Shown here one piece after another: positions 11,229 through 29,100 of a stretch of DNA of 64,000 bases. Both the position numbers and the translations under genes were made by a program. Position 1 is the stretch's first letter. Each line of letters starts with the position of its first letter. The notes under the pieces were generated by a model. The model was not told the DNA's origin. It saw only the letters and a program-made list of their open reading frames with translations, and ran no database searches. This DNA is from Candidatus Eiseniibacteriota bacterium (GTDB lineage: Bacteria; Eisenbacteria; RBG-16-71-46; CAVPCR01), in the NCBI GenBank assembly GCA_963823555.1, contig CAWGMA010000001.1:2176001-2240000 (forward strand). The letters run 5' to 3'.

Positions 11229-12914
11229 ATGGGTAGCATCGCCCACTTCCTCAGAGGCAAGGTCCTCTTGGTGACCGGAGCCACCGGCTTCCTGGCCGGG
11301 GGCCTCGTCGAGAAGATCCTGCGTGCCGCGCCGGGCGTCACCCGCATCTACCTTCTCATCCGCTCCAGCAAGCAAGGCACCGCCACCGAGCGGTTCGAGC
11401 GGGAGATCCTCAAGGCCAGTGTCTTTTCCCGTCTGCGCGAGGTCCATGGGGCCCACTTCGAGGAGTTCGCGCGCCAGAAGATGGTTCCCATCGCCGGGGA
11501 TCTGACTCACGACCGGATCGGACTCACAGACGACGACTACGCCCGCCTCACCCGTGAAGTCGACATCGTCATCAATAGCGCGGCGAGCGTCGTCTTCGAC
11601 GAGCAGCTCGATCAAGCACTCAACCTGAACACCCTGGGCCCAAGACGCCTCGTCGAGTTCGCCCGGAGCTGTCGCGACGCGATCTTGCTCCATGTCTCCA
11701 CGGCCTATGTCAACGGGCAGCGCATCGGACACGTCCCCGAACAGCTTCTGCCCGCCGATCGCTCGCTCGCGCAGATCATCGATCCCCGCTCCAAGGTCGA
11801 CTTCGACCTCGAGAGCGAGATCGAGTCGATCGCCGCCTTCGGCCGCAGGGCCTATGAAGATGCCATGCGTCCCGAGCTGGAGGCGGAATTCGAGCGGGTC
11901 GTGGAGCGCACGCATGCCGGACGGCCGCTCTCCGAGAGCAGACGCAAGCATCACATCGAAGCGCAACGCGGACGCTGGATCAAGAAGCGCCTTGTCGACG
12001 AGGGGATGCGACGAGCTCGCCGCCTCGGCTGGACGGACAGCTACACCTTCACCAAGGCGATGGGCGAGATGGTCGTGGCCAAGACTCGGGGGAACCTGCC
12101 CACCGCCATCGTCCGCCCCTCGATCATCGAGTCGAGCCTCGCCGAACCGGTGCCGGGCTGGCTCGACGGGCTCAAGGTGGCCGACCCGCTCATCATGCAT
12201 TACTCGAAGGGCCGTCTCCCGGACTTCCCGGCCGATCCCAACATCGTGCTCGATCTGATCCCGGTCGACATGGTGGCCAACGCGATCCTGGCTGCATTGC
12301 CCCGGATCCGCGAGAGCCGGGAGATCATGGTCTACCAGGTGGCCAGCGGCTCCGAGAACCCGTTGACGCTCGGTCAGATGTTCGATCTCATCTACGATCA
12401 CTTCCAGAAGCACCCGCAACAGAACCGCCAGGGCGAGGCGATCCGCGTGCAGCGCTGGACCTATCCCAGTCTCGAGCAGTTCCGGCGCTCATTCCGTCTC
12501 AAGTACGTGATGCCGGTGAGCGCGGCATCGTGGCTCATCACCCATTTCGCCGGGCTGCCCTGGACGCCCAGATTCAGGCAACGTGTCCTGCTCATGGCAG
12601 CCACTCTCGACCGGGTCCAGAGCTTGCTCCACATCTACAGCCCCTACATGCATCTCGATTTCCAGTTCGACACCAGCAACACGCGCCGGCTCTACGAGTC
12701 GCTCGATGCCGAGGACCAGGGGGCCTTCGACTTCGACGTGCGGGGTATCGACTGGCGTGAATACATCGAGGACATTCACCTGCCGACACTGATGCGCAAC
12801 TTCTCCAAGGAAGGAAACGGACAGCGGCCGGCCGGACCCCCGTCGACCAACGGCCCGCGGCAGTTGACCGGGCCATCGGCCGTGAGCAGCACCGGCGCCT
12901 CGCTGTCGACCTAG
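11229..12914 (+). CDS. Fatty acyl-CoA reductase (NAD_binding_4 plus Sterile C-terminal domain)
   Basis: 'LVTGATGFLA', 'NSAASVVFD', 'HVSTAYVNG', catalytic 'YTFTK', 'IVRPSIIES', 'IPVDMVANA', 'FDVRGIDWREYI'. Confidence 0.92.
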   Translation: MGSIAHFLRGKVLLVTGATGFLAGGLVEKILRAAPGVTRIYLLIRSSKQGTATERFEREILKASVFSRLREVHGAHFEEFARQKMVPIAGDLTHDRIGLTDDDYARLTREVDIVINSAASVVFDEQLDQALNLNTLGPRRLVEFARSCRDAILLHVSTAYVNGQRIGHVPEQLLPADRSLAQIIDPRSKVDFDLESEIESIAAFGRRAYEDAMRPELEAEFERVVERTHAGRPLSESRRKHHIEAQRGRWIKKRLVDEGMRRARRLGWTDSYTFTKAMGEMVVAKTRGNLPTAIVRPSIIESSLAEPVPGWLDGLKVADPLIMHYSKGRLPDFPADPNIVLDLIPVDMVANAILAALPRIRESREIMVYQVASGSENPLTLGQMFDLIYDHFQKHPQQNRQGEAIRVQRWTYPSLEQFRRSFRLKYVMPVSAASWLITHFAGLPWTPRFRQRVLLMAATLDRVQSLLHIYSPYMHLDFQFDTSNTRRLYESLDAEDQGAFDFDVRGIDWREYIEDIHLPTLMRNFSKEGNGQRPAGPPSTNGPRQLTGPSAVSSTGASLST

Positions 12915-12952: not shown

Positions 12953-14954
12953 ATGGAACGGAACGGCGACCAGTCAACACCCCCGCTGCACGTGGCTCTG
13001 CTCGGAGACCCGGCGCAGATGCTCGATGTCTTCGACGGCGCGGCCCGCGAGATCATCGAGGTCGGGAAGCCGGAGGGCTACTTCGATGGCTGGGCGCCGG
13101 ATGAATCTGAGCTGGCCACCGAGTCGGGACGAGACCGGCCCCATCAGCCTCGACGGGCTCTTGAAGCAGGCGCGCATCGTCCATGCGATCTACTCCGGGG
13201 TTCCGCGCCGCCGCGAGACCCGGCTCGCCGACGCGCACGCCCAGTTCGTCAAGGCCACCCCCGGCTATCATGCCGCCTCGCGCCTCTACCTCGAGATCGA
13301 GAAGCTCTATGTCGAACGCGGCGCCGGCACCGCCCTCGATTTCCTCCATCTCTATCAGGAGCTCTATCTCGATGCCCTGGCCCGAGCCGGCCTCTACACT
13401 CCCGACGAGGGTGAAGCAGCCCTCGAGCGCGCCCGGATCACGCGCGCACCGCTCGCTCACGCGCAGGCGAGTGCGGAGGCGCTGGCCGTCGCCGCCGCAG
13501 CCGGCGATCCCCGCCTCGATCAGACCTATGCGGCCGGCGATCCGGCACGTGAAGCGCCGCTGCGCGAGCACCTGCAACAGGTCGCCCAGGGTACGATCGA
13601 AGCCATCGCCGCCGGAGATCTGCTCGCCACGCGTTACAACACCTATACCAATCTGGCCTGGTTCGGATGCTCGGCCTGGAAGACCATCCTCGACGTGCAG
13701 ATCCTGCTCCGCCGGATCGCGGGTTCCCCCCTCGCCCGGCGCGCCGATGCCAAGGAGACCGCCGGACTGGAAGGCGACATCCGCCGCGCCCAGGGGATGT
13801 TGATCGAGTTCTTCGCCGCTCATCGCGAGGATCCCGCGCGCATCAAGCCGGCGAGCTACTGGTACGGTCATCGTTACAGCTACTTGACACGCGACATGAT
13901 CGATGCCTGCCGTGCCCTCGTTGCCCGTGCCAACCGTCTGGTGCGCGAGCTGGTACGCATGGCAGTGCCGGGAGGCGAGGAGATCGCCGAGATCGCCCTT
14001 CCACCGCTCCTCGCCGGGCGCCTGAGCGGACGCTATCTCGAGTATCCCCACGTCGGACCCCAGCGCCGGTTCTCGACCTGGCAGCGCGTCACTCGCCTCG
14101 GGCGCTGGATCGGGCCGTCGCTGGCCAACGGCCGCAGGAAGCGGGCCCTGGGCAGCTCTCCCCTCTCCCCGCCCGAACGCCGGCGCATCATCTGGCGCGA
14201 GAACGTGCGCTGGGCCGAAACCACACTCCGCACTTTCGGCATCGAGGTTCGGGTCACCATCGATCCCGAGTTCCACTCGATCGCGCGCGCCCTGGATCTG
14301 GGCAACAGGAAGCGAAAGATCCTCTTCCTGCCCACACACCAGGGCCTGCTTGATCATCCCATCATGTACCGGGCGCTGGCCTCGCCCGAACTCGTGGCGG
14401 CCATGGGCTGGGCCGAACCGGCGCCCTGCGCCATGTTCGCGCGAGCAGGCCTCGGCATGGCCGGGCTACGCATCGGCAAGTGGTCGACCACCATGTTCGG
14501 GGTCTCGGCCCGGGAGTTCGATCACCTGCTCGAGACCGTCGATGGATATGTGATCGCCGACCGCACCGGGGACGCGCGCAACGCGATCCAGCGCTTCGCC
14601 AAGGTGCTGGAGGATCGTCCCGGAGTCCTCTATCCGGCGCTCACCACCGCCGCCTTCGACATCCAGTCGCCACCTCTTCAGCACATTCTCTTCGCTCTCC
14701 TACCCCAGGATGTCGTCATCATCCCGGCCGCCATCCGCGGCAGCCACGGGCTCTGGCCCAAGTCTCCGAAGGGAAATCTCCACCTGAATCCCGGGCTTGC
14801 CGAGGTGGTGTTCGCGCCTCCCATGCTCGGCGAGACGACGCTCCTGCCCCGCCGGCGGTCGCTTCGCATCCAGATCGAGGCCGCCGCGCTCTTCCAGGCC
14901 GTGCACTTGCACTACCTTCTGAATCCCGAACCAGCGGCTGCGCAAGCCGGCTAG
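12953..14954 (+). CDS. Large protein with C-terminal PlsC-type glycerolipid acyltransferase domain; apparent +1 frameshift at GGG 13126-13128 (alternative in-frame ATG 13101)
   Basis: Coding-like codon usage from ATG 12953 switches frame at gagtcgggacgag. HxxxxD motif 'PTHQGLLD', 'IIPAAIRGS', 'VVFAPP'. Confidence 0.7.
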
Positions 14955-14958
14955 ACGG

Positions 14959-15672
14959 ATGGAGACCTCACATTCGAAGCTTCTCCCGCCCGCCGCATTC
15001 TTCGATGTGGACGGCACCCTCATGTCCACGAACATCACGATGTACTACGTCCATGTCGCCACCCGTGGCTACTCACCGCTGCGCCGCCTCCTGTGGACCC
15101 TCGGTGTGGGCCCCAAGGCCCTCTACTACCTGCTCCTCGACAAGATGAGCCGCGGCGCCTTCAACCGCGTCTTCTATCGCAACTACCGCGGCCTCGATGC
15201 GGCCCACGTGCGGTCTCTCGCCGACGAGATCTTTGCCGCCGTCATGCGTCCGCGACTCTATCCCGGCGCCCTCGAGGCCATCGCCGAGCACAGGGCGCGC
15301 GGCGAACGGGTGGTGCTGGTCACTGGATCGGTCGATTTCCTGATGTGGCCCCTTGCCCGATTCCTGGACATCGATCCCAGCGATGTGATCGCCGTCGAGC
15401 TCGGCGAAGAGAACGGACGGTTCACCGGTGAGCTCACCGGGCCGCCGCTGGCCGCGGAGGAGAAGGCCCGTGCCGCGCGCGAGCATGCCGCGCGGCACGG
15501 CATCGACCTTGCCGCGTCCTCCGCCTATGGGGACTCGGGAGCGGACATCCCGCTCCTCGAGGCCGTCGGGCACGCGGTCGTCGTCAATCCGACACAGAAG
15601 CTCGAGCAGCTCGCCCGCGAGCGCGACTGGCGCGTTGTGACCTGGTCGCCGGCAGCGGGTGACAGGACATGA
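14959..15672 (+). CDS. HAD subfamily IB phosphatase (SerB-like)
   Basis: 'FFDVDGTL', 'LVTGS', 'EEKA', 'AYGDSGADIPLLEAVGHAVVVNP'. Confidence 0.92.
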   Translation: METSHSKLLPPAAFFDVDGTLMSTNITMYYVHVATRGYSPLRRLLWTLGVGPKALYYLLLDKMSRGAFNRVFYRNYRGLDAAHVRSLADEIFAAVMRPRLYPGALEAIAEHRARGERVVLVTGSVDFLMWPLARFLDIDPSDVIAVELGEENGRFTGELTGPPLAAEEKARAAREHAARHGIDLAASSAYGDSGADIPLLEAVGHAVVVNPTQKLEQLARERDWRVVTWSPAAGDRT

Positions 15673-17738
15673 TGAGGCGCGAACGGCGCGGCGTCCGGAT
15701 CGCCCTGGCCGTCGCCGGTGTGCTCTTCGCCCTCGTCATCACCTTCGCCACCACGACCCACCGCCTCCGCTATCTCTCCCGCGTGAATGCGCTCGGGGCC
15801 GGGAGTCTGCCCGCATCGAGCTTGACCTTGCCGGTACGTCCCATCCTGCCCGCTCCCTACCTCGACGGCTATGCCTGGGTCACTCTCGCCCGCCACATGG
15901 CGGAGTCGGGGCGCACGCGCATCCACTGGACGGACGATGACAATGCTCCGGACGGACGCCGCGTCGACTGGAGCTCGCTCTACGCGTGGTGGCTCCTCGC
16001 GCTCGGCGCCGCAACCGGGCAAGGGGACCTGCTGGCGGTCGCGCGGGCCGCGCCGCTGGCGGGACCGGTGCTTCTCGCCGTCCTCTTGCCGCTCCTGGCC
16101 TGGTTCGCCTACCGGGGGTCGGGTGCGGCGGGCGCGCTCGTCATCGCGCTCTCCCTCGCCGGCGCCTTTCCGCTCGCCGAGAGCTTCTTCGCCGGCAACG
16201 TCGATCATCACGGGCTCGTGGTCGCTGCCGTCATGGCGACGGGGCTCGCCCTCGCCGCCGCCGGCGGCGGCTGGATCGGCGGCGGAGACGCGACCCGGCG
16301 CACGGCCCGCCGCTGGATGATCGTCTCCGGAGTGGCCGCGGCGGTCGGGCTCTGGGTGAGCGCGGTCACGCTCGCCGTGGTGCTCGCCGGCATCGGGCTC
16401 GGTGCCCTGGCGAGCGCCCTTCTCGCGCGCTCGCCGCAAGCCGCACTCGAAACATCGATCACACCGTGGCCAGAGGCCTGGCGGGTATGGGGCTGGTCGG
16501 GGGCGATGGCGAGTCTCGCCTTCTATCTCATCGAGTACTTCCCGGGCGACCTCGGCATGCATCTCGAGGTCAACCATCCGCTCTACGCTCTCGCCTTCGC
16601 CGGCGGCGGCGAACTCCTGACGGGCTGGTGGCGCTGGGTCCGCGACAGGCGGCTCACCGGCGGCGATCTCTTTCGGACTTCAGCCGGGGCCATCGCGGTC
16701 TCGTTGTTGCCTGTGGCCATCATCGTTGCCGGGCCTTCCTGGTACGCGCTCCGCGATCCCTTTCTCTGGAGCCTGCATCAAGACATCGAGGAGTTCCGTC
16801 CCCTCATCACGCTCTTCGCAGAGGCCAGGACGGGAGTGCTGTTCGCCGCGCTGAGCCCGCTCCCGCTCGTCCTCTTCGCGGCGGTGCTCTTGTTCCGGGG
16901 CGGGCATCCCGGCGCCCATGGCGATCAGGCAGCGAGCGACAAGCTCGACCCGCCGGCCGGCGATCCGGTACGAGCGCGGGCCCAGCTCACCCTCGGCCTC
17001 GGCCCGGCTCTCCTTCTCGGCGTCCTCGCCCTGTGGCAACTCCGATGGGTGGGGATCTGGCTCGCAGCACTCGCCGTCCTCGGCTCGGTGGTGGCGGGCG
17101 AGCTCGCGCCCTGGTCGGGTCGCCGCCGCGCCCCGACCAGAGCCCGGACCCGCGCGGCGATCGCTCTCGCCGTGCCCCTGGTCCTCCTCGTCGCCGGGGC
17201 CTTCGATATCGTATCGAGCGCGAGCGCTCAGGCTCGGGGGCGCGCCTTCGTTCCCGACGATATCGTCTCCGCCCTGCTCCGCGACATGGCGCTCGTGATC
17301 GCCCCAGCGCCGGATGCCCAGGGAGGAGATACGGACCACGGCCGGCCCATCGTGCTCGCCAGCCCGGATGCCACGGTCGCCCTGACCTACTTCGCCGATC
17401 TGCGCGGAATCGGCACCCTGTACTGGGAGAACCTGCCCGGTCTTCGTTCGAGCGCCGAGATGTTCGCGACCTCGAGCGCCGATAGCGCGCGCGCCTTGCT
17501 CGCCTCGCGACAGGTCACGCATGTCGTCCTCCTCTCGGAACGCAGCTTCATCGGGACCTACTACCGCCTGATCCACGGCCGCCTCGATGTCGATGCGGCG
17601 CGCAGCACCCTGTTCGGCCGGATCCTGTTCGCCGGCGAGGCGCCGCCCCCCTGGCTTCGCCCCATCCCCTACCGGCTCCCCATCGATCGTCTCGGCGACC
17701 GGCCGCTCCGCGCCGTTCTCCTCGAGGTCACGCCGTGA
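15669..17738 (+). CDS. Polytopic membrane GT-C glycosyltransferase, STT3/AglB-like
   Basis: Many TM segments; 'DGYAW', 'DNAPDGRRVDW', 'GNVDHH'; soluble C-terminal domain with 'TLYWEN' and no WWDYG; ATGA-coupled to the HAD gene. Confidence 0.6.
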   Translation: MMRRERRGVRIALAVAGVLFALVITFATTTHRLRYLSRVNALGAGSLPASSLTLPVRPILPAPYLDGYAWVTLARHMAESGRTRIHWTDDDNAPDGRRVDWSSLYAWWLLALGAATGQGDLLAVARAAPLAGPVLLAVLLPLLAWFAYRGSGAAGALVIALSLAGAFPLAESFFAGNVDHHGLVVAAVMATGLALAAAGGGWIGGGDATRRTARRWMIVSGVAAAVGLWVSAVTLAVVLAGIGLGALASALLARSPQAALETSITPWPEAWRVWGWSGAMASLAFYLIEYFPGDLGMHLEVNHPLYALAFAGGGELLTGWWRWVRDRRLTGGDLFRTSAGAIAVSLLPVAIIVAGPSWYALRDPFLWSLHQDIEEFRPLITLFAEARTGVLFAALSPLPLVLFAAVLLFRGGHPGAHGDQAASDKLDPPAGDPVRARAQLTLGLGPALLLGVLALWQLRWVGIWLAALAVLGSVVAGELAPWSGRRRAPTRARTRAAIALAVPLVLLVAGAFDIVSSASAQARGRAFVPDDIVSALLRDMALVIAPAPDAQGGDTDHGRPIVLASPDATVALTYFADLRGIGTLYWENLPGLRSSAEMFATSSADSARALLASRQVTHVVLLSERSFIGTYYRLIHGRLDVDAARSTLFGRILFAGEAPPPWLRPIPYRLPIDRLGDRPLRAVLLEVTP

Positions 17739-17820: not shown

Positions 17821-19044
17821 ATGAAGGCGATCCAGTACCGGCGAAGCGTGCCGCGCTACCTCCTCGTGCGAGCGATCGCCGGGCACTGGTCCCCGATCGC
17901 CACCGGCCCGCTCGCCATGATCGGCCTGCGCGAGCTCGAGGAGCCTCGTCTCATCACCGATTCGTGGGTGCGCATCCGCACGCGCCTCTGCGGCATCTGC
18001 GGCTCGGATCTGGCCACGATCCTCGCGCAAGGAAGCCCCTACTTCTCGGCCCTCACGTCGTTCCCATTCGTCCTCGGGCACGAGATCGTGGGCACCATCG
18101 ACGAGTTGGGCCCCGCCGTCACCGGACTCGCGCCGGGCGATCGCGTCACCATCGAGCCGGTCCTCGGCTGCACCGCGCGCGGCATCGCCGAGACCTGCCC
18201 GCAATGCCAGGCCGGAAACTTCGGAAACTGCGAGTACACGACACGCGGCTCGCTCGCTCCCGGCATCCAGACCGGCTTCTGTCGTGACACGGGCGGCGGT
18301 TTCAGCCCGCTCTTTCTCGCTCACTCGAGCCAGGTGCACCGCGTGCCCGACGCGCTCGACGACGATGCCGCGGTCCTGATCGAACCCTTCAGCTGCGCGC
18401 TACACGCGGCACTCAAGCCGGAGCTGTCCGCGGACGCCACGGCGCTCGTGCTCGGCGCGGGAACGATGGGCCTGCTGACGATCGCCGCACTCCGCGCCGC
18501 TGGCCGCCGCGCCCGGCTGATCGCCGTCGCCAAGTACCGCCATCAGGCCGAGCTCGCCGGCGAGCTCGGTGCCGATCTCGTGATCCGGAGCGGCCGCGAT
18601 CTCTACCGCGAGGTCTGCCGCGCCACCGGGGCCGAGATCCACCGGCCCGCGCTCGGGAAACCGGTCCTCTCGGGAGGCGCCGACGTCACCTTCGATTGCA
18701 TCGGGAACTCGGGCACGATCGACGATGCGCTGCGCTTCACGCGGGCTCATGGCACGGTCATCCTCGTCGGCATGCCCGCGGTGCCACGCCAGGTCGATTG
18801 GACCTCGATCTGGTACAAGGAGCTCGCGGTCGTCGGTGCCTACACGCAAGGCACCGAGACACTCGACGGCCGGCGCATGCGTACGTTCCCGCTGGCCATG
18901 GAGCTCATGCGGGCGCGGGGCGCCGTGCTGGCGCCGCTCGTGAGCGCGCGTTTCCCGCTCCAGGACTTTCGCCAGGCCTTCGCCCACGCGGCGGCGAGCG
19001 GGCGCCTCGGTGCCGTCAAGACCGTCTTCGCATTTCCCGGATAG
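17821..19044 (+). CDS. Zinc-dependent medium-chain alcohol dehydrogenase
   Basis: 'GICGSD', 'LGHE', structural Zn 'C..CPQC..GNC', 'VLGAGTMGLL'. Confidence 0.92.
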   Translation: MKAIQYRRSVPRYLLVRAIAGHWSPIATGPLAMIGLRELEEPRLITDSWVRIRTRLCGICGSDLATILAQGSPYFSALTSFPFVLGHEIVGTIDELGPAVTGLAPGDRVTIEPVLGCTARGIAETCPQCQAGNFGNCEYTTRGSLAPGIQTGFCRDTGGGFSPLFLAHSSQVHRVPDALDDDAAVLIEPFSCALHAALKPELSADATALVLGAGTMGLLTIAALRAAGRRARLIAVAKYRHQAELAGELGADLVIRSGRDLYREVCRATGAEIHRPALGKPVLSGGADVTFDCIGNSGTIDDALRFTRAHGTVILVGMPAVPRQVDWTSIWYKELAVVGAYTQGTETLDGRRMRTFPLAMELMRARGAVLAPLVSARFPLQDFRQAFAHAAASGRLGAVKTVFAFPG

Positions 19045-19092
19045 CCGGGCGCAGAGATCCGCGATCAGTCACCGGGAGGAAGAGGAGGAGAG

Positions 19093-20640
19093 ATGAAGTA
19101 CCTGACCTACTCGGGAAACAGCTTGGTCGAGGCGGAGCTCCCGGAGAGCGCCCACGTGTACTTCCCGCCGCCGCCGATTCCCGGGATCAAGCGCCCCGAC
19201 CTGCCGGCAGCGCTCCGCCGCACGGTCGAGAACCCGCTCGGCATGCCGCCGCTCCGCGAGCTGGTGGGCCCCACGGCCAAGGTCCTCATCCTCTTCGATG
19301 ACAACTGCCAGCCGTTCCCACCCATGCAACGGCCCGACATCCGCGAGACCCTGATCACAGAACTCCTCGCGATCCTGGGCGAGCACGGTGTCCGGCGGGA
19401 GAACGTCACGCTCATGTGCGCCGTCGCGCTCCATCGCAAGATGAAAGAGAGCGAGCTCACGCACATGCTCGGCGAGCGGCTGATGCGGGAGTTCCACCCC
19501 ACCCGCTGCCGGAACTTCGACGCCGAGGATCCCGACGCGATCGTCTACCTCGGCGACACCGAGAAGGGAGAGCCGGTCGAAACCGACCGCGCCGTCATCG
19601 ACTCCGACCTCGTCATCTATGTGGACACGGTCCAGATCCCGCTCAACGGCGGCCACAAGTCGGTGGCGGTCGGGCTCGGCACCTATCGCTCGATCGCGAG
19701 CCACCACGCCCCGCAGATGACCCTGGAGAGCCCCCATGTCATGCAACCCGACGGCTCGCACATGCATGAGCTCATCGAGCGACTGAGCCACGTGATCCTG
19801 AAACACGCGCGGATCATGGTGATCGAGGCGGCGATGAACGGGGCCACCTATCCGCCGGCGCTCGCCCATCTCGGCAAACCGCGCTCGCAGATGTCCGATC
19901 TCGAGCGGGCGCTCAACACGGCAACCCCCGTCGCCATGGGGCTCCTCCCCGAGCCGGCGCGCTGCGCCATTCTCCGCGGCATGCGCTCGGTGTACGAGCC
20001 GATCGAGATCCACGCCGGCGCGATCGACGCCGTGCACCCCCTGACCCTGGCCGCGCTCGACCGCCAGCTCCGGGTCCAGATGCCGCAGCAGTACGACACG
20101 CTGGTGTTCGGCCTCCCGGATCTGAGCCCCTACTCGGTCGGCGCGCGGGTGAACCCGGTGCTCGTGGTGAGCGATGTCCTCGGCTACGTCTTCAACTGGT
20201 TCTACAACAAGCCGTACGTCAAGCCCGGCGGCGCGGTCATCATCCTGAACCCGGTCTTCGAGATCTTCCATCCCGAGTATCACGTCGCCTATCGCCGCTT
20301 CTACGACGACGTGCTACTCGCGACCAAGGATCCGCTCGAGATGCAAGCGACGTTCCAGGAGAGGTTCGCCAAGGATCCGGTGCTCGTGGATTGCTACCGG
20401 AACCGCTTCGCCCATCACGGCTTCCATCCCTTCACGGTGTGGTACTGGGCGACCTATCCGCTCCGGTACCTGTCCAAGGTGATCCTGGTGGGGCCGCCGG
20501 ATGACCGGCAGGCGAAGCGGCTCGGGGTGTCGTGGGCGAAGAGCCTCGCCGATGCGCTGGCGATGGCGCGCGAGGCGACCGGTGGGAACGACGTCGTGGG
20601 GCTCACCATTCCGCCGTTCCTCTATGCGGAGGTGGCGTGA
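19093..20640 (+). CDS. Lactate racemase (LarA/DUF2088) domain protein
   Basis: 'ENPLGMPPLRELV', 'ILFDD', 'ALHRKM', 'NFDAED', 'LGDTEKGEPVE', 'GGHKS', 'ASHH'; strong GAGGAGG RBS. Confidence 0.82.
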   Translation: MKYLTYSGNSLVEAELPESAHVYFPPPPIPGIKRPDLPAALRRTVENPLGMPPLRELVGPTAKVLILFDDNCQPFPPMQRPDIRETLITELLAILGEHGVRRENVTLMCAVALHRKMKESELTHMLGERLMREFHPTRCRNFDAEDPDAIVYLGDTEKGEPVETDRAVIDSDLVIYVDTVQIPLNGGHKSVAVGLGTYRSIASHHAPQMTLESPHVMQPDGSHMHELIERLSHVILKHARIMVIEAAMNGATYPPALAHLGKPRSQMSDLERALNTATPVAMGLLPEPARCAILRGMRSVYEPIEIHAGAIDAVHPLTLAALDRQLRVQMPQQYDTLVFGLPDLSPYSVGARVNPVLVVSDVLGYVFNWFYNKPYVKPGGAVIILNPVFEIFHPEYHVAYRRFYDDVLLATKDPLEMQATFQERFAKDPVLVDCYRNRFAHHGFHPFTVWYWATYPLRYLSKVILVGPPDDRQAKRLGVSWAKSLADALAMAREATGGNDVVGLTIPPFLYAEVA

Positions 20641-21548
20641 GCACGAGCGGGGCCATGAACGCCGGGGGCGAGACCCTGGTCATCGCCAACCCGGTTTCGG
20701 GAGGCGGTCGCGGGCACACGCTCGGCGACCAGGCGGCGGCCCTCATGCGGGAACGCGGGATCGCCGCGCGGCTCGAGTTCACGACCGGCCCCGGCGAGGC
20801 GGAGCGGATCGCGCGCCAGGCGCTCGCCGCCGGGGGCAGGCGTTTCGCCGTCGTGGGCGGGGACGGCACGGTGCATGAGGTGGCGAACGCGCTCGCCGGA
20901 TCGGAGGCGGCGCTCGGCCTCCTCCCCTGCGGGCGCGGCAACGATCTGGCGCGGGTCCTCGGGGTGCCGGGCGAGGTCGAGCGCGCGGTTGGGATCGTCG
21001 TTTCTGGGCGTCAGCGGCGGATCGATCTCGGGCGCGTCGGCGGGCGGCATTTCGCCACCGTCGCCTCGATGGGGTTCGACTCCGAAGCAGCCGAGCTCGT
21101 GCACTCGGGGGCCGCTCCCCTGGGCGGAACGGCAGGCTACATCTATGCGGTGCTCCGCACCCTCGCGAGCTACAAGAGCCCGACGGTGACGATCCGCGGC
21201 GACTTCGGCGAGTTCACGGGCGAGGTGCTCCTCGCCGCGACCGGCAACACCTCAACCTACGGCGCCGGCATGAAGATCGCGCCGCGCGCAGTCTGCGATG
21301 ATGGATTGCTCGATGTATGCATCGTGCGGGCGCTCCACCCGCTCACCGTGCTCCGCTACTTCCCGCGCATCTTCGCCGGGACGCACGAGGATCTGCCGTT
21401 CGTGGCGATGCACCGCACGCGCCGGGTCGCGATCGAGACCTCGCGCCCGATCTGGATCTACGCCGATGGGGAGCCGATCTGCCGCACCCCAGCGGCGATC
21501 GAGGTCGTGGCAGGGGCCCTCACGGTGCTGTGTCCGGCGGGGGGGTAG
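20637..21548 (+). CDS. Diacylglycerol/lipid kinase (YegS/DgkB family)
   Basis: 'ANPVSG', 'GGDGTVHEV', 'PCGRGND', 'GFDS', 'YGAGM', 'DDGLLD', 'ADGE'; GTGA overlap with the upstream stop. Confidence 0.92.
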   Translation: MSTSGAMNAGGETLVIANPVSGGGRGHTLGDQAAALMRERGIAARLEFTTGPGEAERIARQALAAGGRRFAVVGGDGTVHEVANALAGSEAALGLLPCGRGNDLARVLGVPGEVERAVGIVVSGRQRRIDLGRVGGRHFATVASMGFDSEAAELVHSGAAPLGGTAGYIYAVLRTLASYKSPTVTIRGDFGEFTGEVLLAATGNTSTYGAGMKIAPRAVCDDGLLDVCIVRALHPLTVLRYFPRIFAGTHEDLPFVAMHRTRRVAIETSRPIWIYADGEPICRTPAAIEVVAGALTVLCPAGG

Positions 21549-21655: not shown

Positions 21656-21742
21656 GGTCGCGGGCGGGATGCCGCGACCGGCTGTCCCGAGCCGCCATCC
21701 AACATGGCAACGGCCTGGGCGGCTCCCCCGGAGGAATGCACG

Positions 21743-24700
21743 TTGGCCGCGAATCGCAGGATTGGGCTCCTGGGTGGTCTCCGCGTCATCGACGGTGATC
21801 GAGAGATCACGCACTTCGTCACGCAGAAGACCGCTTCTCTCCTCGGCTTTCTGGCCTATCATCGCGAGCAAGCGCATCTCCGCGACACCGTGATCGAGAT
21901 GCTCTGGCCCTGGGCCAGTCCCGGAGCCGGCCGCCAGAGCCTGAGCACCGCGCTATCCGCCCTCCGCCACCAGCTCGAGCCGATCGGTTTCTCCCCCGGT
22001 TCCGTCCTCCTCACGGATCGCAACACCGTGCGCTTGAACCCTGAGACGACCGTCACCGATGTCCAGGAGTTCGAGACAGCACTGGCAAATGCTGACAAGG
22101 CGGGACCATCCACCAGGAGGCGACAGCTCGAGCGAGCCATCACCCTCTATCGCGGCGACCTGCTCGCCGGGCTCTATGAAACCTGGATTCCACCCGAGGC
22201 GGAACGTCTTGCAGAGCGGTTCCAGGCGGCAGCCTCGGAACTGGCCCGGATCCTCGCGGCTCGCGGCGAGAAGGAGCTCGCCGCCACTCACCTGGAGCGG
22301 GCCATCGAAACAGCGCCGCAGCGCGAGGAACTCTACCGGCAGCTGATGTGCCTCTATTCGGCACTCGGCGATCCTCATCTGGCGCTCGATCTCTACGCGG
22401 AACTGGAAGCCGGCCTGCGTCAGGGTCGGAGGCAGACCCCGGCGGCGGCGACCCAGGAGCTGGCGCAGGAGCTCAAGCATAGCGTCGTGGCTCGCCCCAT
22501 GGCGACGGCGGCACGCAGGCGAATCATCGATCGCAGGGCGCTGCGTGGAGCTCCCGCCACACTGCCCACCGGGACTGTGACCTTCATCGCCATTCTCGCC
22601 GCCAGCGGGTCCGAGCCCGAGCTCCGCGACCTTGGGTTCGATGAAGAGATGCGACGCCATGGCGGCGTGATGGTCGAACCCGAATCCAACAACGCCGCAT
22701 TGCATGTGATGGCGTTCTCGCATGCCGGCGACGCGCTGAACTGCGTCGCGGCGTGCCAGCTGAGAGCGGCACGGTCTCCGAGCAGGGACGCGTCGCGGCC
22801 GGCCATGGCCGTTCACACCTGCCAAGCGGACGTCGGAACTGACGGGCGCTATCCACGCGGCACCCTCGAACATGTGTTGAGCCTCCTGGCCGTGAGCCAT
22901 CCCGGGCAGATCTTGTACACGGAGACCGCCGCGGCCCTCGTCCGCCATGGATTGAGCGGTGGATTCGGGATGCGCAAACTCGGCCGCTATCGCCTACCGG
23001 GCGGCGCGGCTCCTGAACCCCTCTGTCAGATCGATTACCCGGGCGGTCCCGAGAGCTTTCCCCCGCTCAGAGCCGAACCCGGCCCTGCCAACCATCTGCC
23101 CGTCCGCATGACACGCTTCTTCGGACGCGAGGGCGAGATACTCCAGATCGAGGCCATGCTCTCGAGTGGGGCCCGGCTCATAACCCTCGTCGGCGCGCCG
23201 GGATGCGGAAAGACACGCCTCGCACTCGAGATGGCGAATCGGATGGTCGAGGCGTTCGCTGGTCGTGTGTGGTTCGTGCCACTGACCGACCTGCCCGAGG
23301 GTAGTGGCATCCACGACCGGACTCTCGACTCGCTCCGGATCACGCGTTCTCCTCGGATCCCACCCCTCGGTCGAATCGAGTCGGAACTCGCCGATCACCG
23401 GGCGCTCATCGTGTTCGACAACTTCGAACACCTGCTTGGAGCAGCGGGTGAACTGAGCACTCTGCTCGAACATCTACCGCACCTCCATTGCCTCGTCACC
23501 TCGCGACGGCGGCTGAACCTCCCGGAAGAGGAGTGCTTCGGGGTCTATCCCCTGCCGACGCCGATGGACTCCTCCATGAAGACCCTGCTCGCCAATGAGA
23601 GCATCCGGTTGTTCATCGATCGGGCCCAGGCCGTCGCGCCCGAGTTCGATTTGACTGCCGACAACTCCGGGGCTGTGGCGGAGATCTGCGCGCGTCTGGA
23701 TGGCATCCCGCTGGCCGTCGAGCTCGCTGCTGGCCGCCTCAACGTACTGGCGCCGGATCAGATCCTGGAACACCTGGGGGGGCCAGGAACCCTCATGTCC
23801 AGCCGCATTCGAGACGATGACACGCGGCATCGCACCCTGCGGGCAGCCGTGGACTGGAGTTACTCCCTGCTCGATCCCGAGCTCCAGACGTTCTTCGCGC
23901 AGCTCTCCGTGTTCGCGGGGGGGTGGACCACCGAGGCTGCCGAGGCGGTGTGCGATCAGCCGCTGGCCGAGGACCGCCTCTCCGAGCTCTCCGCCTGGTC
24001 GCTGGTCCTCTTCAGGGAAGCGAGCGAAATCGGAGCACAAGCGGGAACCGGTTCCGAGCCTCGCTTCGAGATGTACGCGAGCCTCCGGGAGTTCGCGCGC
24101 GAGAAGCTGCATGCGCTCGACGCTGACCTGGAGCGCCAGGCAGAGGAGCGGCATGGACGGTGGTATGCGCAGCATGGCACCGACGCGGCCATCACGGCGC
24201 TCGACCTGCACGGTGGAGTGGAGCGCCGCAAGAAGCTGGGAAGGGAGCTGGAGAACCTGGTCGTTGCCTGCCAGCGAGCCAGCGAGCGTGGCGATGGCGA
24301 GATCGCCGGGGATGCCTATTGTGGCGCGGCGGCGGTGCTCCTCTTCCAGGGGCCCTTCCACAGGGCCATCTCCCTCGGCGAGCGGGTGGGGGCACTGCCG
24401 CTCGATCAGCCGCACCGGATCCGGGTACTCAGGTATCTGGGGATCGCGGAACTTCGTTCCGGACAACACGATCAGGCAAGGGGCCACTTCGAGGCCGGGC
24501 TTGCGCTGGCGCGAGAGACGGGTCAGCGGCGCGATGAGGGCATGCTCCTCGCATGCCTGTACAGCCTTTGCCGGGAGCAGAACCGATTTCAAGAAGCACG
24601 CTCGCTCATCGAGGGCGCCCTGGCCATCGCCCGGGAGGTCGGAGATCGGATCAATGAGGGCATCTTCCTCGGAAACCTGGGTTCTCTGGACTTCACTGTG

Positions 24701-25669
24701 GGTCGGGTGAGAGAGGCGGAATCCCATACCAAGGCGGCGATCGCCATCCATCGCGAGGTCGGCAACCGCAGTCAGGAGGGTCTCTGCCTCGGAAACTTCG
24801 GCGTCATCTGCCGCGAGCAGGGCCGCACGAGCGAGGCACGCACCCATTATGAGTCGGCGCTCGCCATCCATCGCGAGGTCGGCAACCGGCGGCTGGAAGG
24901 GGTTCTCCTCGGTTATCTGGGGAATCTGTGCCGCTCTCAGGGGAAGCGCGACGAGTCCCGCACCTATCTCGAGGCGGCGCTCGCCATCCACCGGGAAGTC
25001 GGCAACCTCGCCTCCGTCGGGATCACGCTCGGTTTTCTGGGCAATCTGCATCGCGAGCAGGGCAGGATCGACGAGGCGGTCACGCTCTACGATGATGCCC
25101 TGGCCGTGGCGCGGAAGATCGGTGACAGGCGAACTGAGGGCACGATCCTGGGCAATCTCGGCATCTCGCAGTATGGCCGAGAGCGGATGCAGGAAGCCGA
25201 GTCGTACTACCGAGCGGCCATCGCCATTCATCGGGAGACATCTGACAGCGGAGGGGAAGGCCGTACGCTTCACAGCCTGGGGTTGCTCTGCCTCGAACAG
25301 AACCGACTGGACGAGGCGCAGAGTCATTTCGAGTCTGCGCTCGATACCGTGAAGGCAGGAGGCAACACGCGAAGCGAGGGTGCCATCCTCGAGAGTCTGG
25401 GCTCCGTGTTCATGGCCAAGGGCCTGATCCAGCAGGCAAGGGAAGCGATCGACCGCGGTGAGGAGATTCTCCGCGCGGTCGGCAACCCATGGGAACTGGC
25501 AAGCCTCTACTGCACGCGGGCTCAACTGGAGATGAAGATCGGCAACCCGTCCGCCGCCATCACGGCGCTCAGGAGGGCGGAGGACCTGGCCGTCCAGGCG
25601 GGGGCGGGACCGGAATCGGAACTGGCGAAACGGCTGGCCGAAGCCCGCCTGATCTGCCCGGCGCTCTAG
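21743..25669 (+). CDS. AfsR-like STAND regulator: wHTH+BTAD (SARP), degenerate class III cyclase, NB-ARC-like ATPase, TPR array
   Basis: 'TQKTASLLGFLA', 'LYRGDLLAG', Walker A GAPGCGKT, Walker B 'LIVFDNFEH', 'LDGIPLAVELAA', 40-aa TPRs. TTG 21743 follows GGAGG; alternative ATG 21704. Confidence 0.88.
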   Translation: MAANRRIGLLGGLRVIDGDREITHFVTQKTASLLGFLAYHREQAHLRDTVIEMLWPWASPGAGRQSLSTALSALRHQLEPIGFSPGSVLLTDRNTVRLNPETTVTDVQEFETALANADKAGPSTRRRQLERAITLYRGDLLAGLYETWIPPEAERLAERFQAAASELARILAARGEKELAATHLERAIETAPQREELYRQLMCLYSALGDPHLALDLYAELEAGLRQGRRQTPAAATQELAQELKHSVVARPMATAARRRIIDRRALRGAPATLPTGTVTFIAILAASGSEPELRDLGFDEEMRRHGGVMVEPESNNAALHVMAFSHAGDALNCVAACQLRAARSPSRDASRPAMAVHTCQADVGTDGRYPRGTLEHVLSLLAVSHPGQILYTETAAALVRHGLSGGFGMRKLGRYRLPGGAAPEPLCQIDYPGGPESFPPLRAEPGPANHLPVRMTRFFGREGEILQIEAMLSSGARLITLVGAPGCGKTRLALEMANRMVEAFAGRVWFVPLTDLPEGSGIHDRTLDSLRITRSPRIPPLGRIESELADHRALIVFDNFEHLLGAAGELSTLLEHLPHLHCLVTSRRRLNLPEEECFGVYPLPTPMDSSMKTLLANESIRLFIDRAQAVAPEFDLTADNSGAVAEICARLDGIPLAVELAAGRLNVLAPDQILEHLGGPGTLMSSRIRDDDTRHRTLRAAVDWSYSLLDPELQTFFAQLSVFAGGWTTEAAEAVCDQPLAEDRLSELSAWSLVLFREASEIGAQAGTGSEPRFEMYASLREFAREKLHALDADLERQAEERHGRWYAQHGTDAAITALDLHGGVERRKKLGRELENLVVACQRASERGDGEIAGDAYCGAAAVLLFQGPFHRAISLGERVGALPLDQPHRIRVLRYLGIAELRSGQHDQARGHFEAGLALARETGQRRDEGMLLACLYSLCREQNRFQEARSLIEGALAIAREVGDRINEGIFLGNLGSLDFTVGRVREAESHTKAAIAIHREVGNRSQEGLCLGNFGVICREQGRTSEARTHYESALAIHREVGNRRLEGVLLGYLGNLCRSQGKRDESRTYLEAALAIHREVGNLASVGITLGFLGNLHREQGRIDEAVTLYDDALAVARKIGDRRTEGTILGNLGISQYGRERMQEAESYYRAAIAIHRETSDSGGEGRTLHSLGLLCLEQNRLDEAQSHFESALDTVKAGGNTRSEGAILESLGSVFMAKGLIQQAREAIDRGEEILRAVGNPWELASLYCTRAQLEMKIGNPSAAITALRRAEDLAVQAGAGPESELAKRLAEARLICPAL
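24601..25260 (+). repeat. 120-bp periodic TPR-coding repeats
   Basis: tcgccatccatcgcgaggtcggcaaccg is identical at 24741 and 24861, with related units at 24621, 24981, 25101 and 25221. Confidence 0.85.
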
Positions 25670-26141: not shown

Positions 26142-29100
26142 ATGGCCGCAAGCTGGCACATTCGGTTCTTTGGCGGACTGGTCCTCCAGGGACCGGATCG
26201 TACGATCACTCGCTTCCGCACCCAGAAGACAGCGGCGCTTCTGGCGTACCTGGCTTATCACCTCGGCCGCACTTTCCCGCGCGAGACCCTGGTCGACATG
26301 CTGTGGCCGGGCGACTCGATCTCGGGACGCCACAGCCTGAGCACAGCCCTCACTTCGCTTCGCCGTCAGGTCGAGTTGCCCGGGCTCCCTGCCGACTCCG
26401 TTCTCGTCGCCGATCGATACTGCGTGGCACTCAGCGCCGACACCGTCTCTACGGATGTCATCCAGTTCAGAGCAGCACTCCTGCGCGCGGAGCGCGCACG
26501 AAACGCCGAGGAGCGCATCCACGCGCTGGAACATGCGGTCGGGCTCTATCAAGGCGAGTTTCTCCCCGGTCTCTATGAGGAATGGGTTGGCCGGGAGAGC
26601 CTGGCTCACTCCGAGCGATTCGCCAACGCTCTCTGTGAGCTCACGATTCTTCTCGAGAAGCGCGGGGACAGCGTGGCCGCTATCGAGTTTGCGCGGCGTG
26701 CCATCCAGGCCGATCCGCTGCGCGAGGAGCCCTACCGGGAGCTGATGCGCCTCTATGCCGGGATGGGTGAACCGAGCACGGCCGTCCGCTATTACCACGA
26801 CCTCGTGCAGGTCTTTCGCACTGAACTCGACGAATCGCCGTCGCCTGAGACGCGTGCGCTGGCGAAGAAGATCCAGGATGAGCTCTCCCTGAGTGACGGC
26901 TCCCAACCGGCCGAGACGGATTCGACTCGAAGGGGCGACCGGGACCGTGCCGACAGATCAGCAACCGCAGCGACCGCCCCTGCCGGCACGGCGGCCCTCC
27001 TATGGGTCGAGATCACGCCCGCGGACCAGGCGCACGAGCGCGTGGCCACGCCGACACCTGGGCGGCTCCGGAAAGTGCTGCGACGAGAGATCCCCAGTCA
27101 CGGCGGCCACATCGGGACCACACCGGAGGGCCAGCATCTCGGCGTCTTCGCGCGGGCCGCGGACGCGGTCGCCTGCGCTGCCGCGTGCCAGTGCGCACTC
27201 GCTGGAAAGAGTGGACACCCGGCCCGCAACACGACCTTCCGCGGCGCCATCCATACCGGGGATGTCGAGACGACGGGCAGCATCTACAGCGGCTCTGCGG
27301 TCGAGCATCTGGCGCACCTCCTCACGACCGCTTGCGGGGGACAGATCCTCTGCTCGGAGGCAACGGCAGGACTGCTGCGACCCATTCTGGATGGGGGCGT
27401 CACGATACAGAGCATCGGCACCTATCGAATCGGAGAGAAGGCGGTCGCCGAGCGCATCTACCAGATCAACTATCCAGGCCAGAAGATCACCAGGTTTCCA
27501 CCGCCACGCGCCGCCCATGGCCGCCCCAGCAATCTTCCCCTCCAGTTGCCGCGATTCTTCGGCCGGGAAGAGGAGCTCCGGCAACTGGTAGGACTACTCA
27601 CCACAAGCGACATCCGTCTCATTACCCTGGCCGGTCCGCCCGGCGTCGGCAAGTCCCGGCTCGCCATCGAGACGGGGACGCGAGCCCTCGAATCGTTCGG
27701 CGGCGCCGTCTGGTATGTGGACGTCGGCCATCTGCGTGATGCCGCCCGCATCCCTCACGAGATTCTCGAGGCGCTTGCCATCGAGCCCGATGGCAAGATC
27801 GGACTCCTGACGCAGTTGACCCGGGCCCTGGCCGAAGAACGCGGACTGCTCATCCTCGACGACATGGAGCACCTTGCCGCGGGGGCTCCCCTGATTCGAT
27901 CCCTGCTCGAAGACTGCCCACAGCTCAGGGTCCTCGTCACCTCGCGCGAACTGCTCCACCTTCCCGGCGAGCGCGAGGTCATGGTCGCGCCCCTACCGAT
28001 CCCTGTCGCGGACGACGCACCGGAGAAGCTCGCCGTGACCCCGAGCGCCCAGCTCCTGGTCGACCGGGCCCGATCCGTGAGACCAGACTTCGAGCTCACG
28101 GCCCATAACGCCCCCTACCTGGCCGCCATTTGCCAGCAGCTCGAGGGGCTTCCCCTGGCCATCGAGCTTGCCGCTTCCTGCATTCACAAGATGGGCTTCC
28201 CTGATACGCTCGAATTCTTCGCGCACGAACTCGATCTCCCCATCAACAATGGAGAGATCAGGACTCGCCATGGCACACTGCGGGCGGCGCTCGACTGGAG
28301 CTTCGATCGCCTCGGTCCGGATCACCAGCGCTTCTTCGCCTGCCTCGCCGTGTTCCGCGGCGGGTGGACAGCAGAGGCCGCCGAGGCAGTGGGTGATGAT
28401 CCCCTGGCGCTGGACCACCTGGCAGACCTCGCCGATTGCTCACTGATCCAGACCGAGCACGGCCCCAGTGCGGTTCGCTTCCGCATGCTCGATCTGGTGC
28501 GGGAATATGCGCTGGAGCGCTTGGTGGTTCTCGGAGATGCAGGCCCTGCTGAAGCCCGGCATCGCGAGTTCTACCTGGACCTCGCCACGAGGGCGACCGC
28601 CGATCGCCACCGAGCGCTCTCCGCTGCGCAGCTGGAAGTTCTCGACGCGGAGCACGAGAACATGCTGGCCGCCATCGAGTGCTTCAGCATGACGCCTCGT
28701 TGCGCGTCCGTGGCCTTGCGCCTGGCCGTTGCCCTGCACCCATTCTGGTGCAGGCGCGGTCATCTGAAGCTCGGCCTGGCCGTCATTTCGCGAATTCTGA
28801 GCTTGCCGGAAGCTCCTCGGCACTCGCAGCTACGTGCTGAAGCGCTCCATGCCCTGGGACTGCTGTCCCGGGAGCAGGGCGCCTGCCCCATCGCCCAGCG
28901 GCATCTGGAAGATAGCCTCGCCATCTATCGGGAACACGATGACGCAAGAGGCGCCGCTAGTGTGCTTCACGAGCTCGGGATTCTCTTCGCTCGGCGGCAC
29001 GAGTGGGACCGGGCCCAGGACCGCTTCATGCAGGCCTTGTCCCTCGTCCTCGAGTCAGGAGACCTCTGGCTCGAGGCACGGATCCGCGGAGATCGCGGCG

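Follow-up and report, generated by a model that had tools for sequence, protein, structure and literature searches.

In the AGPS reaction, a fatty alcohol replaces the acyl group of acyl-dihydroxyacetone phosphate (acyl-DHAP) and the overall redox state stays the same. In Myxococcus xanthus, the elbA-E genes are MXAN_1531-1527 according to a passage of PMC13012113. A section of a 2022 review (PMC9131029) reports that elbD and elbE mutants lose their ether lipids (Lorenzen 2014), that it is not known how fatty acids are converted to alkyl ethers, and that ElbC in the ether-lipid operon is of "unknown function". Since elbA-E run from MXAN_1531 to MXAN_1527, ElbC is MXAN_1529, which an entry of Dataset S2 (Desguin 2020, PMC7583248) assigns to LarA homologue (LarAH) group 15. 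The window investigated here was a stretch of 64,000 nucleotides (C1:2176001-2240000) in the 4.62-Mb, 92.5% complete genome assembly of a Candidatus Eiseniibacteriota bacterium. It contained an operon of seven genes that run in the same direction at spacings of -4 to 111 nt, and the sixth gene encoded a LarA-superfamily protein, referred to below as LarAH.

Comparative analysis indicated that LarAH is very likely part of an ether-lipid pathway and would probably make the ether bond by some chemistry. The fuller assignment, that LarAH replaces AGPS as the enzyme that makes the ether bond in alkyl-glycerol lipids and uses a predicted nickel-pincer nucleotide (NPN) cofactor, was judged to have an even chance or fractionally better. 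The LarAH family and the elb operon were each already known. No paper linking the lactate racemase/nickel-pincer family to the elb ether-lipid operon was found in the literature searched, which held few subscription journals and no bioRxiv supplements. The assignment names one gene and one cofactor for the ether step of the ElbD pathway, and a genetically tractable organism is available. If it is true, nickel-pincer chemistry reaches from racemization to lipid bond formation, and larBCE gain a use in lineages without lactate racemase. It would also give a better genomic marker for bacterial ether-lipid sources in soils, sponges, and sediments; excerpts of papers from 2025-2026 describe genome screens with elbD alone.

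Relationship of LarAH to ElbC

The LarAH ORF had an ATG start, with AGGAGG at 19083-19088. The best NCBIfam match was NF052592 (LarAH14/15/16), which covered the full length (residues 4-514) with 505.5 bits, under the curated cut-off of 740. In the Pfam search, Lar_N (PF09861; E = 5.9e-33, 114 bits) was the sole domain found; LarA_C gave no match, and the AGPS domains FAD_binding_4 and FAD-oxidase_C were absent. A quick FastTree tree of LarAH proteins placed LarAH in a supported subclade of its own, sister to groups 14 and 15 and apart from the canonical LarAs. LarAH was 34-38% identical over about 505 residues to group-15-like acidobacterial proteins (L090, L091, L093, L098, L103, and L104), which passed the NF052592 cut-off and sat in the order elbB-C-D-E.

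Homology to ElbC was taken via NF052592, and MXAN_1529 itself was compared by eye over its first 400 residues only. According to the relevant part of PMC7583248, MXAN_1529 keeps D72/H108/K184/H200 and is without R75/H174/K298; the same active-site residues were kept and lost in LarAH. The two proteins also shared their neighbors, a HAD phosphatase, a fatty acyl reductase (FAR), an acyltransferase, and a reductase, and linkage to an ElbD-type reductase, an acyltransferase, and an ElbB-type HAD was found both in the window operon and in related loci. LarAH differed from ElbC in its separate subclade and in the Zn-dehydrogenase that replaces ElbE. The window operon differed from the elb operon in that the FAR and the acyltransferase were separate genes, without an acyl-CoA ligase or acyl carrier protein (ACP) domain. 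LarAH is a LarA homologue of the ElbC type, encoded in a FAR/acyltransferase operon.

LarAH group 14 (Actinobacteria: Frankia, Kribbella, Nocardioides, and Rubrobacter), which belongs to a different subclade, had a context close to that of the window operon. The COG1063 neighbor of this group is presumably the Zn-dehydrogenase, under a wrong label in the published table. The rows of Table S1 in PMC7583248 give PlsC (7/8), HAD (7/8), COG1063 (7/8), and thioester reductase (4/8) as neighbors of group 14, and epimerase, HAD, and acyl-CoA synthetase as neighbors of group 15. An assay section of the same paper reports no activity of the Frankia group-14 protein in seven hydroxy-acid assays.

Active Site and Predicted Fold of LarAH

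The initial annotation, which was made from the letters of the window, had pointed to 'DD', 'LHR', 'GGHK', and 'HH' motifs, and these were located at D69-D70, L113-H114-R115, G186-G187-H188-K189, and H204-H205. Alignment by eye with LarA-Sp, a single-His protein of LarAH group 17, placed the ribose Asp at D70, the catalytic His at H114, the NPN-tethering Lys at K189, and the Ni-ligand His at H205; thus D73/H115/K195/H211/Y307/H401 of LarA-Sp aligned to D70/H114/K189/H205/Y347/H445. The loss of the D-x-T-R-P arginine and the PHFFAG histidine, also claimed earlier, was borne out by the alignments. The position of LarA Arg75, which binds carboxylate or phosphate, was Q73, and that of the second catalytic His (LarA His174; Asn185 of LarA-Sp) was I182 within a 3-residue deletion. 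H114, K189, H205, Q73, and I182 were invariant in 42/42 aligned close homologues, and D70 was present in 41/42; this alignment took in 41 of 120 listed matches. Y347, H442, and H445 were further conserved residues. Of the two catalytic histidines of 2-hydroxy-acid racemases (LarA, Mar, Sar, and GntE), LarAH had only the first (H114), and their Arg75 was missing.

The AlphaFold model of LarAH (pLDDT 96.4, pTM 0.94) had 9q3k as its best structural match (Z 42.2, rmsd 2.1, 456 aligned residues, TM 0.82). Z ranged from 23 to 42 against 12 LarA entries, and the next unrelated structure had Z 6.4. Because the model matches LarA-family structures, the LarA-like motifs did not arise by chance. The closest structures belonged to group 17 (LarA-Sp, 9q2u/9q3k; LarA-Bw, 9q3j), with about 26% identity; their invariant Asn, K76, and H306 were Ile182, Q73, and P346 in LarAH. 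In the portion of PMC12611868 concerned, LarA-Sp binds NPN covalently without lactate racemization, and group 17 occurs in sugar-metabolism contexts. L. plantarum LarA and the characterized LarAH racemases and epimerases shared the fold and the NPN-binding Asp, Lys, and His with LarAH, at 16-23% structural identity; LarAH differed from them in having no second His, no carboxylate-binding Arg, and no LarA_C.

A helical insert was located at about residues 255-295, about 40 extra residues relative to group 17, and a hydrophobic-moment scan did not single it out as a membrane anchor. A search of proteins of 955-2725 aa gave no longer homologues that would indicate fusions (E<=1e-20), which is weak evidence. 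P0251, P0262, and P0237, in which the C-terminal half of a LarAH seemed fused to an acyltransferase-like region, look like frameshifted read-throughs of neighboring genes and were not counted.

Complementary Distribution of LarAH and AGPS

The distribution of LarAH was investigated in 201 genomes from the phylum of one Acidobacteriota metagenome-assembled genome (MAG); this central genome (G046) was included, so that one positive was non-random. The LarAH model matched 23 genomes and the FAR matched 40, of which 32 were in frames of 1440-1515 aa, the length of ElbD. The ligase and acyltransferase domains were confirmed in all 24 that were examined of the 32 ElbD-length frames. Eight FAR matches in frames below 1400 aa, seven proteins of about 800 aa and fragment G078, were set aside. 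An ElbD-length FAR was present in 22/23 LarAH genomes.

In 2 of the 10 LarAH-negative ElbD genomes, a 586-aa flavoprotein beside ElbD was AGPS (E 7e-160 to PDB 4bby). AGPS search of the 201 genomes gave 11 matches, which were all ten LarAH-negative ElbD genomes and G171. The 32 ElbD-length genomes were divided into 21 with LarAH only, 10 with AGPS only, 1 with both, and 0 with neither; among the 169 remaining genomes, AGPS was found in 0 and LarAH in 1 (G166, with the gene at a contig end). One counted LarAH (G106) was split by a stop codon. Three unpublished genomes (G098, G001, and G005) enter the counts and trees, and the tally without G098 was 20/10/1/0. The 51 genomes that carry the window clade, the window's own genome included, gave no AGPS-level match (best 1e-38, partial).

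In the ElbD trees, the AGPS-partnered and LarAH-partnered types were interleaved with 4 changes, and a single AGPS clade appeared in 0% of 200 bootstraps. In a tree of 23 of the 54 rows of the larger tree set, a single clade of AGPS-partnered ElbDs was rejected by the approximately unbiased (AU) test (p 2.6e-7). Two results from M. xanthus, given in sections of PMC9131029, support a role of LarAH in place of AGPS: disruption of AGPS caused only a minor loss of ether lipids, and an insertion in elbB, upstream of elbC, was rescued by elbD only in part.

Exchange of Gene Modules

The neighbors of ElbD changed together with its partner. A HAD was beside or fused to FAR in 24/24 LarAH-type loci and in 0/10 AGPS-type loci, and an SDR adjoined AGPS in 10/10 AGPS-only genomes. 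No ElbB-type HAD was found anywhere in these ten genomes (positive control 5/5), and their Zn-dehydrogenases were only generic ones with at most 37% identity. The reductase slot was held by three unrelated families, namely the Zn-dehydrogenase, ElbE, and SDR. The pair of HAD and LarAH takes the place that AGPS has in the other loci.

AGPS (also ADPS) resembled LarAH in its place next to ElbD and its pairing with a reductase, and in the proposed net redox-neutral acyl-to-alkyl exchange with a cofactor acting as transient electrophile. It differed in belonging to an unrelated family (FAD, VAO type), in having no HAD companion, and in using a phosphorylated substrate. With a little better than even odds, a module of HAD, ElbC, and reductase has been swapped repeatedly with one of AGPS and SDR, and the elbC-type genes encode NPN-dependent alkyl-ether synthases that supply the missing step of the elb pathway. 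This would be a C-O bond-forming NPN reaction, on a route separate from AGPS and from the anaerobic Ger/Pls route, and elbC or agps, rather than elbD alone, would predict alkyl-ether makers.

Predicted NPN Cofactor and larBCE Genes

From the retained ligands, LarAH is likely NPN-dependent. As the initial annotation had reported, larB, larC, and larE were absent from the window; the doubt about NPN that this implied was not upheld, as the NPN ligands are retained and the genes lie elsewhere in the genome. The genome search that the annotation had named as a check found larB at C1:260046, larC at C1:260791, and larE at C1:330956, each above the cut-off. Because the genome holds all three, their lack in the window is uninformative on cofactor independence. 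The genome also encoded a second LarA homologue (C1:1600492-1601826, 444 aa) with the D-x-T-R Arg and the second His motif, matched by both Lar_N and LarA_C; larBCE may serve this homologue too.

Among 50 genomes with close LarAH homologues, selected from 79, larC was present in 50/50 and larB in 49/50. LarAH was the sole Lar_N gene among the matches listed in 26/71 genomes, and all 26 had larB. The baseline of larB was about 74% (150/201 Acidobacteriota and 89/121 Gemmatimonadota genomes; G073, G195, G302, and G342 count only in these baselines). In the 201 Acidobacteriota genomes, larB was present in 22/23 LarAH genomes versus 128/178 others (p = 0.011, uncorrected). LarAH occurred in 3/121 genomes of the Gemmatimonadota sample, a number too small for a test. 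In both samples, larB was far commoner than LarAH, which suggests that the NPN cofactor has users besides LarAH.

Proposed Mechanism

The initial annotation had proposed FAD-independent ether-bond formation. This part gained from the kinship with ElbC and from the complementarity with AGPS among ElbD genomes; acyl-DHAP, the substrate then assumed, may not be the one used, as the ElbB-type HAD accompanies LarAH and does not occur in the AGPS-only genomes. Closely related ElbDs serve LarAH and AGPS alike, so the substrates of LarAH are probably also an acylated C3 unit and a fatty alcohol. A dephosphorylated acceptor is suggested because HAD is constant and the anion-binding Arg is lost.

A possible but tentative chemistry is elimination-addition on such an acceptor. 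The acyltransferase would acylate the C3 backbone while FAR makes the fatty alcohol, and HAD would take off the phosphate to leave the C3 hydroxyl free. Transient oxidation or enolization of the backbone by H114 and NPN would then allow the fatty acid to leave by beta-elimination and the fatty alcohol to enter by conjugate addition. The net result would be a redox-neutral acyl-to-alkyl exchange without need for the second His of the racemases; the loss of His174 fits this mechanism because no face-switching reprotonation is needed. The Zn-dehydrogenase, or ElbE in the myxobacterial variant, would reduce the remaining carbonyl, and the YegS kinase would re-phosphorylate the product. Oxidation, elimination, and addition have an analogy in hidden-redox enzymes such as S-adenosylhomocysteine (SAH) hydrolase. 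Formation of an adduct directly at NPN C4, in the manner of AGPS, would be an alternative chemistry.

Weighing of the Assignment and Alternative Explanations

Several points weigh against the assignment of the ether step to LarAH. Because the swapped unit has three genes (HAD, LarAH, and the reductase), the step is given to LarAH by elimination. A sister clade with a GGWK motif (L182-L261) and the same ligands comprised uncharacterized single-His LarAH proteins, with an SDR upstream in 17/80 loci, a HAD_2 phosphatase in 7, and acyl-CoA oxidation genes beside some. No FAR or ElbB-type HAD was found nearby in 80/80 metagenome loci of this clade, many of them short (80 of 156 loci). A single-His active site is therefore not by itself specific to lipids. 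Co-occurrence with larBCE is weak evidence for NPN use, because larB reaches about 74% in both phyla and the genome has a second, more canonical LarAH. The complementarity of LarAH and AGPS had a Fisher p of 1.7e-7 with kinship ignored. Only 2 independent contrasts on well-supported branches, or 4 on all branches, were available, too few for a sign test, so that there is no kinship-corrected significance. All counted genomes were MAGs, in which absences may be assembly gaps, and both systems (LarAH/ElbC and AGPS) occurred together in G171 and in M. xanthus. The ElbD-dependent product detected in M. xanthus, as given in a passage of PMC9131029, was a fatty aldehyde (i15:0) and not an alcohol.

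An unlikely reading, although the best placed of the alternatives, is that LarAH has an accessory role and isomerizes or epimerizes the C3 backbone, by a ketose-aldose shift or by an sn inversion with the Zn-dehydrogenase, while another member of the module forms the ether bond or it forms spontaneously. The three-gene size of the displaced unit leaves room for this, and the SDR upstream of the GGWK clade, whose context is not lipid-related, would fit it as well. HAD phosphatases and MDR/SDR reductases are not known to form ethers, which weighs against this reading, as does the filling of the reductase slot by three unrelated families. The characterized LarA enzymes are all isomerases in the account of PMC7583248, and the sugar-metabolism link of group 17, the closest structures, is drawn in part of PMC12611868. 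PMC9131029 depicts the ether lipids of M. xanthus with the usual sn-glycero-3 stereochemistry, so that no stereo-inversion is needed. Backbone epimerization, the second option of the initial annotation, leaves the absence of AGPS in LarAH genomes unexplained.

Rather less probable is reductive etherification, in which the FAR aldehyde and a glycerol hydroxyl form a hemiacetal, and a hydride is passed by NPN from glycerol C2 to the hemiacetal carbon; this would yield alkyl-dihydroxyacetone, which is then reduced by the dehydrogenase. The detection of the i15:0 aldehyde without fatty alcohol favors this route, and in its native reaction NPN takes a hydride from a carbinol with the help of His108. 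This route accounts equally well for the loss of the second His and for the complementarity with AGPS. However, AGPS works on a fatty alcohol together with an acylated acceptor, and closely related ElbDs serve AGPS elsewhere, which suggests the same substrates for both partners.

Formation of the ether bond by LarAH without NPN, via the conserved histidines or a simple metal, is improbable. The NPN-phosphate-binding Arg is lost (Q73), larBCE never occurred in the LarAH operon, and degenerate relatives without Lys and His exist (group 16); K189 and H205, however, are invariant in the aligned homologues and retained in groups 14 and 15, and the near-universal larC and larB of the LarAH genomes, including those with LarAH as the sole Lar_N among the matches listed, speak against it. 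An ordinary 2-hydroxy-acid racemase (e.g., of glycerate or a 2-hydroxy fatty acid) in an incidental lipid-operon position can be nearly dismissed: superfamily membership, a caution in a passage of Desguin et al. (PMC7583248) that genomic context is not always predictive, and the genes unlinked from elbD in Poribacteria and several other loci favor it, but the second catalytic His and carboxylate-binding residues are missing, the group-14 protein showed no activity with the hydroxy acids tried, LarAH co-occurs with ElbD at the genome level even where unlinked, and it is complementary to AGPS.

Organization of the Operon and Related Loci

The genes of the operon are listed in Table 1. The window FAR shared 41-45% identity with the N-terminal domain of 1450-aa ElbD proteins and is the predicted source of fatty alcohol or aldehyde. 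The Zn-dehydrogenase is a predicted carbonyl reductase of the C3 backbone, in the slot held by ElbE or SDR in other variants. The start of the YegS-type kinase gene overlapped the LarAH stop by 4 nt, and a re-phosphorylation role is predicted for the kinase.

Table 1. Features of the LarAH operon in the window.
Feature	Coordinates	Strand	Remarks
Stand-alone fatty acyl reductase (FAR; NAD_binding_4 + Sterile)	11229..12914	+	E 1.2e-73; homologous to ElbD reductase domain
642-aa protein, C-terminal PlsC/GNPAT-like acyltransferase domain, HxxxxD at H438	13026..14954	+	Atlas feature matches 0.93-0.94 to PF01553 clusters
HAD-IB phosphatase, ElbB-like, DxDGT	14959..15672	+	TIGR01490 153 bits, cut-off 98
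689-aa polytopic membrane protein, weak STT3-like match	15669..17738	+	TIGR04154 E 8.5e-5
Zn-dependent MDR dehydrogenase	17821..19044	+	Pfam ADH_N + ADH_zinc_N
LarA-superfamily, ElbC-like protein (LarAH)	19093..20640	+	515 aa; Lar_N + LarA fold
YegS/DAGK-family lipid kinase	20637..21548	+	TIGR00147 164 bits, cut-off 119

The 642-aa protein had no Pfam or NCBIfam match over its length, and neither Pfam, NCBIfam, nor the Atlas gave a match for its N-terminal 400 aa (13026-14225). A Latescibacterota locus (L023) with identical operon order contained a full-length homologue (54%). The gene of the 689-aa membrane protein, which had no BLAST match in 80 related loci, overlapped the HAD stop, and glycosylation of the lipid product is a possible role of its STT3-like protein. 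Immediately downstream of the operon, at 21704-25669 and 26142-29756, lay two large BTAD/NB-ARC-like/TPR regulators in tandem (1321 and 1204 aa).

The related loci were 80 of 300, from Gemmatimonadota, Poribacteria, Latescibacterota, Planctomycetota, Acidobacteriota, and Eisenbacteria. At distances of up to 10 kb from LarAH, these 80 loci, many of which reach contig edges, had FAR in 14, HAD in 17, the kinase in 14, and a dehydrogenase orthologue (at least 40% identity) in 37. In Poribacteria and several other loci, the LarAH gene was not linked to elbD. At the genome level, a FAR homologue was present in 49/50 genomes with close LarAH homologues. A 1460-aa FAR neighbor in related loci had the complete ElbD architecture.

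An ElbD variant of about 1210-1250 aa was observed at L165-L167 (G018, G026, and G024), in which the reductase-ligase was fused to a HAD in place of the ACP and acyltransferase and was followed by a Zn-dehydrogenase. The Latescibacterota FARs of about 1200 aa, considered as fusions with the 642-aa acyltransferase, were actually FAR-ligase-HAD fusions.

ElbC Homologues in Algae and Degenerate Paralogues

Prasinophyte-type green algae encoded LarAH proteins of the ElbC clade (P0165 and P0296, Cymbomonas tetramitiformis; P0156 and P0158). P0156 kept the Asp/His/Lys/His ligands; P0158 had a C-terminal chlorophyll a/b-binding domain, possibly a gene-model artefact. Degenerate ElbC paralogues (P0121, P0144, and P0148) and group 16 were without the Lys and/or His ligands and kept the C-terminal His motifs. 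The presence of Frankia in groups 14 and 16 alike hints that inactive partner subunits may exist. An entry of PMC7583248 lists a degenerate group-16 LarAH for P. propionicum, and a passage of PMC11237483 describes ether-linked glycolipids of this organism.

A Distinct FAR Cluster in Acidobacteriota

The genomes with FARs of about 800 aa had neither AGPS nor ElbC and look like a different system. A conserved cluster of Acidobacteriota at L124-L129 (G121, G219, G200, G066, G064, and G227) consisted of a HAD-FAR fusion of about 790 aa, a second reductase, a 470-aa protein, two AMP-ligases, an enoyl-CoA hydratase (5/6), and a lipid kinase (4/6). The 470-aa gene in the seven clusters with ~800-aa FARs was considered as AGPS and rejected; it had a weak PS_pyruv_trans match instead. 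With this weak match to polysaccharide pyruvyl-transferase, the 470-aa protein is a candidate for another fatty-alcohol-using step.

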